Below, one piece after another: positions 275 to 14,932 of a DNA stretch of 32,000 nucleotides. Positions within the stretch are counted from its first letter, which is position 1; every line of letters begins with the position of its first letter. Both the position numbers and the translations under genes were made by a program. This stretch comes from an archaeon (GTDB taxonomy: Archaea; Iainarchaeota; Iainarchaeia; Iainarchaeales; CSSED10-239). The stretch is from assembly GCA_035387745.1 (NCBI GenBank), contig DAOOON010000001.1, forward strand, positions 31,952-63,951, written 5' to 3'. Below the pieces are notes generated by a model, which was given only the letters and a program-made list of their open reading frames with translations, was not told where the DNA came from and searched no databases.

Positions 275-1534
275 ATGGATAAACAATATATAGAAAGAAT
301 AATACTTGATCAATCAGAAGATCTAAAAAAAATGGAACTTGGTTTTACAAGAAATAAACTCCAAGATATAGATAGCCACATAAAATCAAAAATAAATATT
401 GTAATAACTGGTGTTAGACGCTCTGGCAAATCAATATTATTATTACAGATAATGGATAAATACTATAAAGACAAGTTTTATTATCTAAGATTTGCGGACG
501 AAAGATTATCAGATATACAGATAGAAGATTATCAAAAAATATACGAAGTGTTTTTAGCAAATTTTAATAAAACAAATATTTTCTTTTTTGATGAAATACA
601 AGGAAAACCAAAATGGGACCAGTTTGTTAATAGATTATATGAAACCGGTAATAAATTTTATATAACTGGCTCTAACTCCGAGTTATTAAGTAAAGAGATA
701 TCAACTTATCTAACAGGAAGGCATCTAGATATAGAGTTATATCCTTTTTCGTTTAGAGAGTTTTTAGACTTTAAAAAAATAGATCTAGATTACAGGTATA
801 CAAAAAACCTAATAAAAATAGAAAAAGAAATTGTAAATTATTTAAAAATAGGCGGTTTTCCACAAGTAGTAGTAGAAAATAATACCTCTTTACTTGAAGA
901 GATATATGAGGACATAATAAACAAAGACGTTTTATTAAGATATAATATAAACGATGTTTCTGTTCTTAAAAAAACAGCAATATTTTTAATGTCAAACATA
1001 GCTAAAGAATTTTCATATAATTCCCTAAAAAAGATGTTTAATTTAGGTAATTCAAATACAATTCGAAACTATGTTTATTATTTGTCTAATGCCTATTTGT
1101 TATTTGAATTAAATAAATACGATTATTCTTTTAAAAAGCAAGAAAATTATTCAAAAAAGATATATTGTATAGATACTGGATTAATAAACAAAATGGCATT
1201 TTCTTTTTCTGAAAATCTTGGAAGACTATATGAAAATTGTGTTTTTATAGAGCTAAAAAGAAGAGGCAAAGATATATATTTTTGGAAAGATAAATCTAAT
1301 AGCGAGATTGATTTTTTAATGCTTGAAAAAAACAAGGTTGTTTCTTTAATACAAGTTTGTTATAATTTAAATGATCTTAAGACAAAGGAAAGAGAAGTTA
1401 ATGCTTTACTTTCTGGGCTAGATGAATTTAAGTTAAAGGAAGGGATAATAATAACAAAAGATTTAGACAAAGAAGAAAAGATAAGAAATAAGACCATTAA
1501 GTTTATTCCTTTATGGAAATGGTTATTAGAGTAA
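275..1534 (+). CDS. AAA+ superfamily ATPase, COG1373 / DUF4143-type
   Basis: 419-aa ORF with an ATG start. It has Walker A GVRRSGKS and a Walker B-like FFFDEIQ. The N-terminal P-loop domain followed by a long C-terminal region is the usual layout of COG1373 ATPases. The family assignment is from motif memory, not a search. Confidence 0.7.
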   Translation: MDKQYIERIILDQSEDLKKMELGFTRNKLQDIDSHIKSKINIVITGVRRSGKSILLLQIMDKYYKDKFYYLRFADERLSDIQIEDYQKIYEVFLANFNKTNIFFFDEIQGKPKWDQFVNRLYETGNKFYITGSNSELLSKEISTYLTGRHLDIELYPFSFREFLDFKKIDLDYRYTKNLIKIEKEIVNYLKIGGFPQVVVENNTSLLEEIYEDIINKDVLLRYNINDVSVLKKTAIFLMSNIAKEFSYNSLKKMFNLGNSNTIRNYVYYLSNAYLLFELNKYDYSFKKQENYSKKIYCIDTGLINKMAFSFSENLGRLYENCVFIELKRRGKDIYFWKDKSNSEIDFLMLEKNKVVSLIQVCYNLNDLKTKEREVNALLSGLDEFKLKEGIIITKDLDKEEKIRNKTIKFIPLWKWLLE

Positions 1535-1668: not shown

Positions 1669-2529
1669 ATGAAAAATCAAAAATTAAAAGCAATCACTCC
1701 AATTGTTACAACTATTCTTTTAGTAGTAGTTGCTGTAATTCTTGTAACAATAGTCTTAAACTGGGGCAGAGTTTTTACTACTAGTTCTTTAAGTAAAACC
1801 CAAGGCATAGAGTTAACAAAATCTGATGCAGTTTCTTTTGTTTATCCAACTCAGTTAAAAGATGGCATAATACAATTTAATTATTCTCCGCCTTCTTCTG
1901 AGTCTTTTGGTGATATCATAATTACAAGTTATAAAGTATTATCTGATTCTGGCGAGACTCCAGACACTAATCTTTCTTCAAATTACACTTTAAAGCAAGG
2001 TTCAAATCTAATAGATCTAACAGGTTTTTCTTCTTTAGGTCTAGACTCTTCTTCAAAAGTCACGCTTGTTTTACAAACAACTGACAACACCTATCTAGAC
2101 ATAAAAAACATAACAAATTATTATGCAGTGCCTGTGCTTTTACCATATGTTTTAACAAATTCAGGAGACAAATTATATATTCATCCAAGTGATTCTCCAA
2201 CAGCCTTAACTTGGGCAGACGCAGGCCCATATTGTGAAAATTTAGACTCTAACGGTTATGACGATTGGTATCTTCCAAGCATGTCACAATTAGCAGATAT
2301 TTGGCTAGCTTGCCCTGATCAAACAAAATCGAACATTTGTATGAATAATAATATAAACAAAGATAATCTTCCATACACAGAAACCTGGGTTGATTTTATA
2401 GCAGACTATTATTGGTCAAGTACGGAGTGTGGGGCGGACGGCGCTTACGATATCGCTATGAACTATGGGGGCATCGGCATTAACGGTAAGGCCAAGGGCC
2501 TCTACGTGCGTTGTGTTCGTGACCAGTAG
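1669..2529 (+). CDS. DGR target protein: archaeal pilin-type N-terminus plus S/T-rich middle plus C-terminal DUF1566 / C-type-lectin-fold-like domain carrying the VR
   Basis: 286-aa ORF. The N-terminus MKNQKLKAITPIVTTILLVVVAVILVTIVLNWG resembles the archaeal type IV pilin N-terminal domain (short basic stretch, [KR]A[IV][ST]P[IV][IV], then about 20 hydrophobic residues). The C-terminal LTWADAGPYCENLDSNGYDDWYLPSMSQLADIW ... YWSSTE ... YVRCVRDQ matches the DUF1566 pattern seen in many DGR targets. The VR occupies the last 34 codons before Q-stop. Confidence 0.85.
   Translation: MKNQKLKAITPIVTTILLVVVAVILVTIVLNWGRVFTTSSLSKTQGIELTKSDAVSFVYPTQLKDGIIQFNYSPPSSESFGDIIITSYKVLSDSGETPDTNLSSNYTLKQGSNLIDLTGFSSLGLDSSSKVTLVLQTTDNTYLDIKNITNYYAVPVLLPYVLTNSGDKLYIHPSDSPTALTWADAGPYCENLDSNGYDDWYLPSMSQLADIWLACPDQTKSNICMNNNINKDNLPYTETWVDFIADYYWSSTECGADGAYDIAMNYGGIGINGKAKGLYVRCVRDQ
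2422..2523 (+). repeat. DGR variable repeat (VR)
   Basis: 102 nt align without gaps to 3189-3290, with 79/102 identical. 21 of the 23 differences lie where the other copy has A. The 3' 21 nt (2502-2522, ctacgtgcgttgtgttcgtga) are identical to TR 3269-3289 and are the IMH-like candidate. The VR ends 3 nt before the stop codon of the target (TAG 2527-2529). Confidence 0.9.
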
Positions 2530-2572
2530 TAACCAGGGGTTTTTGACAAGCCGTGGGCTTGGCAAAAGCCAT

Positions 2573-2595
2573 CAAGACATCCAGCGGATGTCTTG
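2573..2595 (+). promoter_or_regulatory. Perfect 10-bp hairpin with a 3-nt AGC loop downstream of the VR
   Basis: caagacatcc-agc-ggatgtcttg was read directly, and the arms are exact reverse complements. It is GC-enriched relative to its surroundings. A weaker 6-bp hairpin (caagcc-gtg-ggcttg) lies at 2547-2561. Confidence 0.8.
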
Positions 2596-2611
2596 TTTGT
2601 GATTGTCAGGC

Positions 2612-2640
2612 AAAGTCACAACCCAGCGGGTTGTGACTTT
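2612..2640 (+). promoter_or_regulatory. Perfect 13-bp hairpin with a 3-nt AGC loop, the second of a pair sharing the apex CCAGCGG
   Basis: aaagtcacaaccc-agc-gggttgtgacttt was read directly, and the arms are exact reverse complements. It is followed by a T/A-rich tract before the avd ATG at 2674. Confidence 0.8.
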
Positions 2641-2673
2641 GATATGTTTTGAAAAAAAAATTTGTGAATAAAA

Positions 2674-3036
2674 ATGGTTAGTTACGAAAACCTTGGAGTT
2701 TACAAGTCTTCTTTTGATCTTTGTGTGTATTTTGAAAAGATTGTTAAAAATTTTAATAAGGGCAATAAGTTTACAATTGGCGCAGATTTAAAAAATAAAT
2801 CGCGAGAGATTGCAATGCAAGTGGTTAGAGCAAATATATCAAGTACAAAAATAAAAGAAATTCAAGAGCTAATAATTTTAATTGAAGAACAAAAATTGAT
2901 AGTAAGATTGTGTCAAGAAACAAACGGCTTTCCTAATAAAAATTCATACGGATATATCTCAAAATTATTAACAAACCTTACAACCCAAGCCAATAACTGG
3001 CTATTATGCTCGCAAAAGCGAGAACAAACAGAGTAA
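2674..3036 (+). CDS. avd: Accessory variability determinant (Avd)-like four-helix-bundle protein
   Basis: 120-aa ORF between the target and TR/RT, the canonical avd position. Its size, predicted all-helical character and pattern (LGVYKSSFDL...VKNFNKGNKFTIGADLKNKSREIAMQVVRAN...W near the C-terminus) resemble the Avd / 23S-rRNA-IVS-protein family (PF05635-like). The call is from memory of the family, not a search. Confidence 0.75.
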   Translation: MVSYENLGVYKSSFDLCVYFEKIVKNFNKGNKFTIGADLKNKSREIAMQVVRANISSTKIKEIQELIILIEEQKLIVRLCQETNGFPNKNSYGYISKLLTNLTTQANNWLLCSQKREQTE

Positions 3037-3188
3037 AACCCGGAGTTGTAAATGTGAATAAAAGCAGTTTTACAAGCGCGGTTATTCATGGTGATGAAAG
3101 ACACCTAAACGGTAGTAAGTATTTTAATTAAGCTCTACTTTTTCTAAAAGATGAACTTTTTTAATAAAAGATCTTTCACAAAGGATGC

Positions 3189-3290
3189 ACGGAGTATGGG
3201 GCGGACAACGCTTACAATATCAATATGAACAATGGAAACATCAACAACAACAATAAGACCAATAACAACTACGTGCGTTGTGTTCGTGAA
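3189..3290 (+). repeat. DGR template repeat (TR)
   Basis: This is the adenine-rich copy (41 A in 102 nt; 13 AAY codons in the VR-equivalent frame) of the VR. It lies immediately upstream of, and overlaps, the RT ORF. The boundaries are where homology to the VR decays, and 2 further matching nt are possible at the 3' end. Confidence 0.9.
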
Positions 3291-4463
3291 CACGAATTTA
3301 CTTTTCAAGAACTTCATAAAGCATATATGACTTGTAGAAAAAATAAAAGAAATACAATCAATGCTTTAAAGTTTGAAGTTGATCTGGAAAGTAATTTACA
3401 AGAGTTGGTGTTTTGTTTAAATAACAAAACCTATAAGCCAACTCGCTCTGTTTGTTTTTCTATAACCGACCCAAAGCCACGCGAGGTTTTTGCTGCTGAT
3501 TTTAAAGATAGGGTAGTTCATCATCTTCTTTATAACCGTCTAAACCCAATTTATGAAAAAATATTTATCTATGATAGCTATGCTTGTAGAAAAAACAAAG
3601 GCACTTTAAACTCAGTAAAAAGAGCACAAACCTTTACAAGAAAGATTACAAACAATTCAAAAGAAAAAGCCTATTATCTACAACTAGATATTCATAATTT
3701 TTTTATGAGTATTGATAAAGATATTTTGTTTGGGATTGTAAGCCGCAAGATAAAAGACACAAGTTGGCTCTGGCTTACAAAACAGATAATCTATTACGAC
3801 CCAACCGAGAAATACTTACAGAAAGGTTCAGATTGGAAACAATCTGGTGTTCCTAAACACAAAACCTTATTTAACACTAAAAAAAACAAGGGCTTACCAA
3901 TAGGGAACCTTACAAGCCAGTTCTTTGCAAATGTCTATCTTAATGAATTAGATCAATATATTAAACATAAAATGAAAGTAAAATATTACATAAGATATGT
4001 AGATGATTTTATTATCTTCTCAAAATCAAGAAAAGAACTATTATCTATTAAAAAAGAAATAGAAACCTTTCTAAAAGAAAAGCTATCTTTAGTTCTAAAG
4101 CCCCTAACCATTCTAAAACCCATTTCCTCAGGCATAAACTTTGTAGGCTATATCATAAAATCAAACTATCTTTTGCCAAGAAATAGAGTAGTTAATAATA
4201 TATATAAAAAAATAAACCTTTTTAAGAAAGACAGTATTTATTTAGAAAACAAAGCTCTTGTTTATGATTTCAAAAATTCGGTATATTTTATAAAATCTAT
4301 AAATAGCTATTTTGGATATCTTAAACCATCCAAGCACAAAAATCTCCTAAAGGATATAAAGACAAAAAACCGTTTTTTAAATATTTTATTTATTTTTGAA
4401 AATCATAAGATCAAAAATAAATACCAGACAAATTTTATAAATTTAAAAATTAAGGCCGTTTAA
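3225..4463 (+). CDS. DGR-type reverse transcriptase
   Basis: 412-aa ORF. It has DPKPREVFAADFKDRVVHHLLYN (RT motifs 1-2), LPIGNLTSQFFANVYLNELD (IGNLTSQ at 3900-3920, the SQ signature typical of DGR RTs) and the catalytic YVDD at 3996-4007. The start is uncertain: the only in-frame ATG upstream of the conserved FTFQELHKAY block is 3225, which lies inside the TR. GTG at 3273 is an alternative. Confidence 0.9.
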   Translation: MNNGNINNNNKTNNNYVRCVREHEFTFQELHKAYMTCRKNKRNTINALKFEVDLESNLQELVFCLNNKTYKPTRSVCFSITDPKPREVFAADFKDRVVHHLLYNRLNPIYEKIFIYDSYACRKNKGTLNSVKRAQTFTRKITNNSKEKAYYLQLDIHNFFMSIDKDILFGIVSRKIKDTSWLWLTKQIIYYDPTEKYLQKGSDWKQSGVPKHKTLFNTKKNKGLPIGNLTSQFFANVYLNELDQYIKHKMKVKYYIRYVDDFIIFSKSRKELLSIKKEIETFLKEKLSLVLKPLTILKPISSGINFVGYIIKSNYLLPRNRVVNNIYKKINLFKKDSIYLENKALVYDFKNSVYFIKSINSYFGYLKPSKHKNLLKDIKTKNRFLNILFIFENHKIKNKYQTNFINLKIKAV

Positions 4464-13253: not shown

Positions 13254-13706
13254 ATGTTTACTAAAAAAGGTCAACTTTCAATAGAGGTTCTAATAATTAT
13301 AATTTTTTTTATTACCTTTATCTATGTTTATAATAATTTAGCAGAGCAAACAGTTTATTCTTTAGAAGTAAATAAGATAAAAGAGCAAGAGCTAACAATT
13401 GCTCTTTCTGTTAATGAGTTTTTAGAAGCGCAAAAAAATATTTTAGCAGACTCAACTATTGTAGATTATAATGCAACCTATCGTTTGCCAACAATAGCAA
13501 TAGCAAGTAGAAAATTAACTTCCTGTTTTGTAGATATTAATCTTGACACACAACAGCTGATTGTTCAAACAGATTATTCTAATATTCACACAGATATAGA
13601 TATTAATCTTTCAAGCACAGATTTTAATATTTCGGGCATTATAAGTTGCGGGCAGACAATTGTGTGTGATAAACCCTCAACAAAAATAGAGTGTAGACAA
13701 ATATGA
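13254..13706 (+). CDS. Class III signal peptide (type IV prepilin-like) protein 1
   Basis: 150 aa. MFTKKGQLSIEVLIIIIFFITFIYV has a basic leader, a G at the putative cleavage site, Glu at +5 and a hydrophobic helix. Cys pairs lie in the C-terminal part. It is the first gene of a four-gene overlapping cluster. Confidence 0.65.
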   Translation: MFTKKGQLSIEVLIIIIFFITFIYVYNNLAEQTVYSLEVNKIKEQELTIALSVNEFLEAQKNILADSTIVDYNATYRLPTIAIASRKLTSCFVDINLDTQQLIVQTDYSNIHTDIDINLSSTDFNISGIISCGQTIVCDKPSTKIECRQI

Positions 13707-14188
13707 TAAAGACAAAAAAAGGGCAAGTAATGTTATTAGATGTTTTATTTGCAGTAGTTATAGTTATACTTATGTTTTTCTTGTTATTAAAGTTTGTAGA
13801 AACAGACATCTACAAAACAAATGTGGACAGCAGAACAGAAGAGCTAACAAGTATTGGTTCTATAGCTTATCAGAAGTTTTTGAATAATCCAAAGATTAAT
13901 TGTAAAGTCACAGATTCACAAAATTCTTTTTATCTTCCAGGAACCATAGATACTTCTGAAACAATTACAAAAGCAGATTTGGGTATACCTGCAGATTATA
14001 ATTGTCATACTGACCCAACAGTTGATGGCTGTCAAGCAACCGCCTTTTCTGGTCCATCCTACACCATTCAATTTCCTGTAGTTACTTGTTCCACAGATTT
14101 AAACAAAAACACATATATCGATTATATTACAGATATTTATAATCCATCAACACAACTAATAACATTACAAGTATGGAGGGCGAGTTAA
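13703..14188 (+). CDS. Class III signal peptide (type IV prepilin-like) protein 2
   Basis: 161 aa. MIKTKKGQVMLLDVLFAVVIVILMFFLLL. The start overlaps the upstream stop (ATGA). The mature part contains several Cys. Confidence 0.65.
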   Translation: MIKTKKGQVMLLDVLFAVVIVILMFFLLLKFVETDIYKTNVDSRTEELTSIGSIAYQKFLNNPKINCKVTDSQNSFYLPGTIDTSETITKADLGIPADYNCHTDPTVDGCQATAFSGPSYTIQFPVVTCSTDLNKNTYIDYITDIYNPSTQLITLQVWRAS

Positions 14189-14481
14189 TGAAATCAAAGG
14201 CTTTTATATTTAGTGTTACTGCGCTTTATTTTGTTATGTTGTTTGTTTTATTTATGGGTCTGATTACTTATACTTATCATAACGCAGTCTATAAGCAAAC
14301 AACCTCGGTGGTTGATAAAACAGCAAGTGATTATATTCAAGGAAATGATTCTACATCTATTCCAACAAATGGCTGGTGTGTAAGAAGAATAGTCTATGAT
14401 GCAAACACACAAAGCAGTACCCAATCTCCAAGAGAAATAAAAACATATTGTGAGGATTATGGCACGCAAAGGTTTATTTGA
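14188..14481 (+). CDS. Class III signal peptide-like small protein 3
   Basis: The preferred start is the ATG at 14188 (MKSKAFIFSVTALYFVMLFVLFMG), which overlaps the upstream TAA. The ORF track also allows an ATG at 14173. Confidence 0.55.
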   Translation: MKSKAFIFSVTALYFVMLFVLFMGLITYTYHNAVYKQTTSVVDKTASDYIQGNDSTSIPTNGWCVRRIVYDANTQSSTQSPREIKTYCEDYGTQRFI

Positions 14482-14932
14482 ATTGGTTTTTATTTTAGTG
14501 ATGCTTGTGTTAATGCTTCCAGCAACAATGCATCACAGCGCTATTGTTACCTATAGTGCCCAAGCTCAAGCAAACGATCTTTTGTTATTAACAGACCAAG
14601 CAATTGCTGATGCCCTTGCAGATGGCTCTCACAGCGGATGTTTAGCAAGTTCTAACCAAGTAGCTAGTTATGTTAATAATCTTCAAACTGCATATCAAGA
14701 TATAGGAAACAATTGTGAGATTTTAGTAAATGTTTCTGGCACAAATCCATATACCGGCGATGCAAATGTAACTTGCTTTAAGAACAATGGCGATACCACC
14801 ACATACATAAAGAAAAGAATGACTTTTAATAAAACAGTTACTGCAACTTCTGGTGGTGGAACCTGTAGAGTAATAGTTATTGATAACCTTTCTAGTGGAG
14901 CAAACCAAGTAGATTATAATCTTTCAACTTAA
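14459..14932 (+). CDS. Class III signal peptide (type IV prepilin-like) protein 4
   Basis: The ATG at 14459 gives MARKGLFELVFILVMLVLMLPA. The ORF-track start at 14450 is GTG. The mature part contains four Cys. Confidence 0.6.
   Translation: MARKGLFELVFILVMLVLMLPATMHHSAIVTYSAQAQANDLLLLTDQAIADALADGSHSGCLASSNQVASYVNNLQTAYQDIGNNCEILVNVSGTNPYTGDANVTCFKNNGDTTTYIKKRMTFNKTVTATSGGGTCRVIVIDNLSSGANQVDYNLST

Follow-up and report, generated by a model that had tools for sequence, protein, structure and literature searches.

A diversity-generating retroelement whose target is a probable modular type IV pilin with a hypervariable lectin-like head in a small-genome archaeon

In gut Bacteroides, diversity-generating retroelements (DGRs) – chromosomal, or borne on integrative and conjugative elements – work with Avd to hypermutate the C-terminal, C-type lectin (CLec)-fold head of type V pilus-tip adhesins: the head sits on an N-terminal pilin domain, and what the pilus displays is a variable adhesin. 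Here we describe a gene of comparable design, the target of a DGR at bases 1669-2529 of a 32,000-nucleotide stretch of archaeal DNA (the whole of which is called the window). We think it likely that this gene encodes a DGR-diversified modular archaeal type IV pilin, displaying a hypervariable lectin-like head. An earlier note on this DNA had proposed that a DGR-diversified DUF1566/CLec-like domain is joined here to an N-terminus of the archaeal type IV pilin kind, and homology at the level of the protein family supports that proposal. The type V pilins of Bacteroides are exported by a Sec/lipoprotein route, polymerise by strand exchange and belong to diderm bacteria, whereas the window target would join an archaeal type IV module, with its class III signal, A24 peptidase and helix core, to an Lcl_C/DUF1566 head.

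The closest architectural analogue is found among the bacterial modular type IV pilins, such as PilB (von Willebrand factor A module) and PilC (lectin module) of Streptococcus sanguinis (PMC8179133). These share with the target the order of a complete pilin module, a short linker and a binding module, together with a choice of alternative cargo that includes lectin-like and M26-peptidase-related domains; they differ in having been defined on the bacterial IPR012902 motif, in an account that leaves archaea unmentioned, and in carrying modules that are not DGR-diversified. For the head, the nearest relatives are LdtA of Legionella pneumophila and other DUF1566-type (CLec2) DGR targets (PMC5758913), a recognised target class in which the variable region (VR) lies in a C-terminal DUF1566/Lcl_C-type domain. 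LdtA, like the target, has the ...VRCVR framework, and it is displayed on the surface, as the target is predicted to be, but it is an outer-membrane-anchored lipoprotein, whereas the anchor and display device of the window target would be an archaeal pilin module. Known DGRs of DPANN archaea (Paul et al. 2015, PMC4372165; Paul et al. 2017; Handa et al. 2016) resemble this one in their Avd, CLec-fold target and suggested role in attachment; pilins, signal peptides and transmembrane anchoring go unmentioned in Paul et al. 2015 (PMC4372165). Solved archaeal pili (P. calidifontis 8FK7, S. solfataricus 6W8X, S. acidocaldarius Aap 8Q30) show the same N-terminal leader and helix followed by a beta-sandwich, but they are built of major pilins of ~130-145 amino acids, with neither an extra C-terminal domain nor hypermutation. 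A full-text search of the literature, which did not take in the DPANN survey of Paul et al. 2017, found no report that connects DGRs with class III signal peptides or with the pilins of archaea; the target is apparently an undescribed archaeal counterpart of the DGR-diversified pilus-tip adhesins of Bacteroides.

The DGR is complete and occupies window bases 1669-4463: the target open reading frame (ORF), which begins MKNQKLKAITPIVTTILLVVVAVILVTIVLNWG, is followed by Avd, the template region (TR) and the reverse transcriptase (RT) (Table 1). NCBI holds an identical target protein as HOZ35396.1, 'DUF1566 domain-containing protein [archaeon]'. Aligned over 2423-2523 and 3190-3290, VR and TR show 23 mismatches in 101 positions, 21 of them at adenines of the TR, and the mismatches mostly recode AAY codons (residues 254, 258, 261, 263, 266, 268, 270, 271, 273 and 275-278). 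The placing of the VR in the C-terminal domain, already put forward in the earlier note, is confirmed. The 20-mer TACGTGCGTTGTGTTCGTGA that forms the common 3' end of VR and TR occurs nowhere else in the window, and a match of any kind was seen in 0 of 100 shuffles. DGR-type RTs are defined by the motifs [LIV]GxxxSQ and YxDD, and the translated RT holds both. Avd scores 32.5 bits with bAvd PF22296, under the 40-bit cut-off. Syntenic cassettes are present at loci L013 and L016, the latter being the closest GTDB representative: Avd is 84-92% identical in the two (84% in L016), the RT is 96% identical to that of the window in L013 and 74% in L016, and the L016 target is 56% identical. The longest RT ORF begins within the TR. 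In L013 the gene call starts at a GTG that corresponds to the one at window 3273, which may be the true RT start; with either start the 5' end of the gene would overlap the TR.

Comparison with a sister strain and with homologues bears on whether the retroelement is active. Locus L007 (JGI 3300010355, another sample) is near-identical to the window over 2.7 kb, and 21 VR positions differ between the two, 18 of them at TR-adenine sites. Among 34 homologues the AAY-coded VR positions have an entropy of ~3 bits, while that of the VR framework (Y248, W249, A259, Y260, M264, G267 and RCVRD) lies below 0.6 bits, invariant and hypervariable positions being interleaved along the VR. Since most of the L007 differences sit at TR-adenine sites and the AAY positions vary among homologues, diversification by the DGR is recent or ongoing. 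At the two window VR differences that do not fall at TR adenines, 2481 (C to T) and 2496 (T to G), L007 shows the base of the TR; both changes probably arose as ordinary point mutations once retrohoming had taken place. Just 5' of the VR, at window 2329-2421, lie a further 17 clustered differences from L007 that are not adenine-specific; in this part L007 looks like the P0003 lineage, a sign that target alleles may have recombined or undergone gene conversion.

The head itself is readily assigned. Residues 177-284 match Pfam Lcl_C (PF07603, formerly DUF1566) with E 1.3e-12 and 48.5 bits, above the cut-off of 34.9, and in an AlphaFold2 model of the target (mean local confidence, pLDDT, 81.7) the predicted fold matches the C-terminal domain of Legionella Lcl, 8q4e (Foldseek E 6.8e-6; TM-score 0.68, normalised to the target). 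The C-terminal domain of Bdellovibrio Bd2740 was also matched by Foldseek, and the family profile finds 8q4e by sequence (E 2.2e-5). The C-terminal DUF1566/CLec-like domain of the earlier note is thus upheld.

Assignment of the N-terminus draws on the family to which the protein belongs. It reads MKNQKLKA and then ITPIVTTILLVVVAVILVTIVL: a short basic leader with a [KR]-[GA] end, followed by ~20 hydrophobic residues. A helix spans residues 11-37 of the model, and I16, L17, L18, V20 and G33 are nearly invariant in 99 family representatives. The target on its own falls below the cut-offs of two pilin hidden Markov models (HMMs) – 16.5 bits with TIGR02537 arch_flag_Nterm (cut-off 20; E 0.0044) and 13.8 bits with Pilin_N PF07790 (cut-off 25.2; E 0.11) – and it fails a strict FlaFind-like pattern, having P at +3. 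These points weigh against a pilin. The pattern was judged too narrow, because the solved structures include pilins of this type with S/E-P at this place. The sub-threshold scores, over alignments of 23 residues, would also fit an N-terminus that is a transmembrane anchor or Sec signal of the ordinary kind, its likeness to pilins being noise from hydrophobic composition; this explanation is very unlikely and largely refuted. The two HMMs are independent, yet both align residues 7-29 in register from the start of the model, and no match of this kind was obtained for two other membrane proteins encoded in the window. At the level of the family the pilin matches are strong: among 30 homologues TIGR02537 was matched in 24 (best E 3.9e-7), the UpsA pilin model in 23 and Pilin_N in 20, and several homologues carry the JGI annotation "flagellin-like".

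Comparison with solved structures points the same way. The family profile matches the type IV pilus subunit of Pyrobaculum calidifontis (8FK7, E 1e-5) in an alignment that pairs MKTKGLEPIVAAVLLIVVAVIG... with KLKAITPIVTTILLVVVAVIL...; with a slash at the predicted cleavage site, K7-A8/I9-T10-P11 is set against MKTKG/LEPIV of 8FK7. The match thus takes in both the [GA]/x-[ST/E]-P motif and the charged residues of the leader, which speaks against an ordinary membrane anchor. A subunit of the Cuniculiplasma filament (8REY) is matched as well. We took the first residue of its deposited chain (VSPIIATILL) as the mature N-terminus; this residue is aligned to I9, and cleavage of the leader is therefore predicted between A8 and I9. 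Foldseek searches with the model recovered the S. solfataricus pilus 6w8x (E 2e-3, probability 1.00) and also the S. acidocaldarius Aap filament 8q30. The bacterial IPR012902 methylation motif (G/FxxxE) is absent, the target having KA/ITPIV without Glu at +5: it is predicted to be an archaeal-type pilin, modular-pilin-like and outside the bacterial IPR012902 set. The pilin-type N-terminus claimed in the earlier note thus stands for the family, by the TIGR02537 matches and 8FK7, but not for the single protein, which remains under both HMM cut-offs.

Between the helix and the head the earlier note had seen an S/T-rich, linker-like middle. Rich in these residues it is – S and T make up 28-38% of residues 34-151 vs 11% in housekeeping proteins, and all four N-x-S/T sequons (N71, N101, N105 and N147) fall here – but it is no linker: AlphaFold2 folds it as the pilin's own beta-sandwich, with strands over residues ~58-151 and pLDDT of 73-90 by block. 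A phmmer search with residues 1-176 returned 161 clusters (E <= 1e-3), ranging from stand-alone pilins to proteins of 1271 amino acids; many of the matches are stand-alone proteins of 140-165 amino acids, aligned across nearly their full length. The operon pilins of locus L001 are homologous to the target module, and residues 4-95 of the target are 42% identical to stand-alone operon pilins (phmmer 5e-18, in a small database). At eight loci in related DPANN metagenome-assembled genomes (MAGs), two consecutive T2SSF (TadC/FlaJ-like) genes precede tandem short pilin genes (~150 amino acids); these operons hold 3-5 tandem pilins with the N-terminus KK[AG][IV][SE]P[LI]IATILL, and a T2SSE ATPase is encoded nearby. 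Stand-alone homologues within such operons are a further argument against the ordinary membrane anchor. Because the middle folds as a beta-sandwich and is homologous to stand-alone operon pilins, the target is predicted to be a whole pilin to which an extra C-terminal head has been added, with the pilin module in residues 1-151, a conserved LPY linker at 158-160 and Lcl_C at 177-284.

The same pilin N-module is found with a range of other cargo in DPANN MAGs: GLUG/Peptidase_M26_N, RCC1, Kelch, Laminin_G_3, PKD, DUF5018, Hint/intein, Fn3_assoc with CHB_HEX_C, Lcl_C and FGE-sulfatase; some members have none. Nine loci of pilin N-module proteins with cargo are present in the MAG DAOOUC01. In the pilin-module family, archaea have a large set of candidate modular pilins that has so far gone undescribed.

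A prepilin peptidase, which the earlier note had envisaged elsewhere in the genome, was found in related MAGs and, probably, in the source genome. Directly after the RT in L016 lies a Peptidase_A24 gene (L016:5848-6678; E 8.4e-10, above cut-off, with the GGGDIK motif), and the presence of this enzyme beside an orthologous DGR is again out of keeping with an ordinary membrane anchor. The L016 MAG also holds a T2SSF-pilin operon and T2SSE. A copy of the peptidase that is 89% identical lies in L022 (L022:3-509), ~4.5 kb from a pilin-module + CLec gene, and together these cases suggest a recurrent genomic link between prepilin peptidase and pilin-module targets. For the source organism, the NCBI accession block that contains the target (HOZ35396.1) also contains an A24 peptidase (HOZ35688.1) and a second pilin-module protein with DUF1566 (HOZ35696.1); the peptidase contig and the window contig come from the same samples and assemblies at a coverage of 20.97 vs 19.93, and a variant of the peptidase contig carries a VR that matches the window TR. 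Peptidase and target would hence lie in one genome (one NCBI MAG, not a closed assembly). Tetranucleotide similarity does not discriminate between the contigs, all DPANN loci standing at r ~0.97-0.99.

The target would be polymerised into a pilus, most likely as a tip or minor subunit. Several observations weigh against this. The target gene is placed among housekeeping genes, outside any pilus operon; neither the window nor the 10 kb that follow it contain a gene for a PilB/FlaI-type ATPase or a TadC/FlaJ gene; PilB and PilC of the source genome were not located in searches that did not reach that genome; and class III signal peptides occur also on archaeal surface proteins outside filaments. 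A T2SSF profile scan of JGI metagenomes did not have sample 3300010355 among the matches listed, and no HOZ35 accession is present among the NCBI accessions of 10 ATPase clusters. One ATPase, P0208, was considered as the source genome's own and rejected, having come from other samples.

These same facts – a target gene among housekeeping genes with no pilus operon, and no PilB/PilC found for the source genome in the searches made – are what would be expected of a surface protein that has a class III signal and no filament, its head being shown on the envelope by way of the membrane helix or a bindosome-like assembly. The sugar-binding proteins of Sulfolobus use class III signals without pili, and the many family members with cargo, up to 1271 amino acids long, might fit poorly in a fibre. 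We nonetheless consider such a protein unlikely. The homology of the target extends into the globular domain of operon pilins (the 42% identity over residues 4-95 noted above), related GTDB MAGs with the same target type encode two T2SSF proteins, T2SSE and pilin operons, and bulky bacterial modular pilins do assemble into pili (PMC8179133).

If a modular pilin is what the DGR diversifies, the steps would be as follows. An A24 prepilin peptidase would probably remove the basic leader, with its K-A end, between A8 and I9; the hydrophobic helix and an S/T-rich, probably glycosylated beta-sandwich would form the complete pilin module, onto which the Lcl_C/DUF1566 lectin-like head is grafted C-terminally. 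Adenine-mutagenic reverse transcription by Avd, TR and RT would, by analogy with characterised DGRs, copy the TR into the last ~100 nt of the gene, randomising ~15 residues of the head and leaving its framework intact. Carried by the pilin module, the head would be exposed outside the cell, most probably at the tip of a type IV pilus or on a minor subunit of one, and the outcome would be a rapidly re-programmable adhesin. Besides this gene, the TR appears to serve another pilin-module target, at a remote place in the genome.

Pairing of DGRs with pilin modules is not confined to the window. Adenine-specific VR/TR pairs are found on pilin-module targets in at least four cassettes and with two CLec types: the Lcl_C type in the lineage of the window, L013 and L016, and an FGE-sulfatase-type CLec (...FRCVVVP) in L003, L027 and L028, whose RTs are 37-42% identical to that of the window. 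The VRs of L022 and L023 matched none of the TRs tested. Targets may also lie far from the cassette. On the 429-kb contig of a close relative (L013/L014, ENA ERZ15185023 NODE_5), which bears the syntenic cassette, a paralogous pilin-module target (P0007, 317 amino acids) is encoded ~155 kb away, and its VR matches the cassette's own TR with adenine-specific differences. In the lineage of the window itself, L050:14860-15828 (protein cluster of HOZ35696.1) encodes a second pilin-module + Lcl_C protein of 314-322 amino acids; its VR matches the window TR, the identical 3' 20-mer included, and the gene is a probable remote second target of the window's DGR. The A24 prepilin peptidase gene is ~5.5 kb upstream of it, six or seven genes away. 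KilA-N and RadC genes are found near this second target. A broader proposal is that DPANN (Iainarchaeota-like) archaea possess plug-and-play modular pilins to which DGRs have repeatedly been recruited, to give hypervariable pilus-tip adhesins and with them an attachment organelle: this we advance tentatively, giving it slightly less weight than would make it our expectation.

The genomic setting is cellular. The window (G+C 31%) encodes a series of archaeal housekeeping proteins – proteasome beta, aCPSF1, CCA-adding enzyme, ABCE1, RFC, PCNA, archaeal Lon, PheRS and aIF5A – and the immediate neighbours of the cassette are the genes for FKBP, proteasome beta, aCPSF1 and CCA-adding enzyme. The window's first base is base 1 of its ENA contig, and the 10 kb past its end contain ribosomal, enolase and ParA-type genes only. 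The nearest named relatives of the source organism are Iainarchaeota ("Ca. ainarchaeum", "Ca. Iainarchaeum") MAGs. An AAA_14/DUF4143 ATPase gene lies at window 275-1534, directly upstream of the target gene; its position is kept in the relative with the 429-kb contig, where the identity is just 44%.

Many DGRs are phage-borne, and the DGR might on this account belong to a virus or mobile element, its target being a viral receptor-binding protein; the ATPase upstream of the target, and the KilA-N and RadC genes near the second target in L050, could be read in the same sense. We regard a viral origin as highly improbable, more so even than the ordinary membrane anchor. The flanks are housekeeping genes, and the gene order around the cassette is the same on the relative's 429-kb contig; capsid, terminase and integrase genes are nowhere to be found in the window; and the N-module is one common to cellular pilus-operon pilins.

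Two further features deserve mention. Between the target and avd the DNA of the hairpin region folds with -37.8 kcal/mol (z = -7.1), a value equalled in 0 of 200 shuffles, and no Rfam family was matched across the hairpins, Avd and the TR; possibly these hairpins are DGR target-recognition (cruciform) elements, or terminators. The second is a set of four small ORFs downstream, which the earlier note had called a prepilin-like operon. The four ORFs exist and all fit the N-terminal pattern ([KR]-[GA] followed by hydrophobic residues), which among the 51 ORFs of the window is otherwise seen in the target only; support from HMMs is weak, the first ORF alone matching Class_IIIsignal PF04021 (E 0.015, below cut-off) and none of the four matching TIGR02537. 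Among the loci compared, tblastn gave a single weak match, for the second ORF in L047 (E 0.002), and was not otherwise informative. It is plausible that the four encode minor pilin-like proteins of a different sequence class, peripheral to the main finding.

Table 1. Position and character of the features described, in window coordinates.
Feature	Position	Strand	Remarks
DGR target gene	1669..2529	+	286 amino acids; leader, hydrophobic helix, pilin beta-sandwich, Lcl_C/DUF1566 head
Predicted class III (prepilin-type) leader, M1-A8	1669..1692	+	predicted cleavage between A8 and I9
Predicted hydrophobic N-terminal pilin helix, I9-G33	1693..1767	+	TIGR02537 and Pilin_N alignments, family conservation, model
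S/T-rich globular pilin beta-sandwich (predicted), residues ~50-151	1816..2121	+	four N-x-S/T sequons
Lcl_C/DUF1566 CLec-like ligand-binding domain	2197..2520	+	residues 177-284
VR	2423..2522	+	pairs with TR, offset 767 nt; last ~100 nt of target gene
Three GC-rich hairpins	2538..2641	+	stems ~8-14 bp; between target stop codon and avd
Avd accessory protein	2674..3036	+	bAvd PF22296, E 1.3e-7
TR	3190..3289	+	40% adenine; overlaps 5' end of RT ORF
DGR RT	3225..4463	+	RVT_1 E 1.6e-22; IGNLTSQ and YVDD motifs in translation
Four overlapping small ORFs	13254..14932	+	150, 161, 102 and 160 amino acids; [KR]-[GA]-hydrophobic N-termini

What would follow concerns both the organism and the use to which DGRs are put. 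An episymbiotic lifestyle of the source archaeon, with a host-attachment role for the target, is plausible. The DGR targets of DPANN archaea have so far been described mainly as CLec-fold proteins whose location is uncertain; a pilin of type IV as the carrier, with the A24 peptidase and the T2SSF/T2SSE pilus operons as partners, would offer a concrete mechanism of display, and would make the idea of hypermutation for attachment in small-genome archaea directly testable. On the broader proposal made above, the type V pilus tips that DGRs diversify in Bacteroides would gain their first counterpart among archaea, one of type IV. With the target read as a DGR-diversified modular pilin, DGRs would have been put to convergent use on pilus types that are unrelated to each other: type V in Bacteroides, type IV in the window archaeon. 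The bacterial "modular pilin" principle would thereby extend to archaea, and the pilin-module family, with its alternative cargo, would serve as a catalogue of candidate archaeal adhesins. For the small-genome archaea that carry it, such a system would amount to a programmable attachment organelle for the recognition of partners or surfaces.

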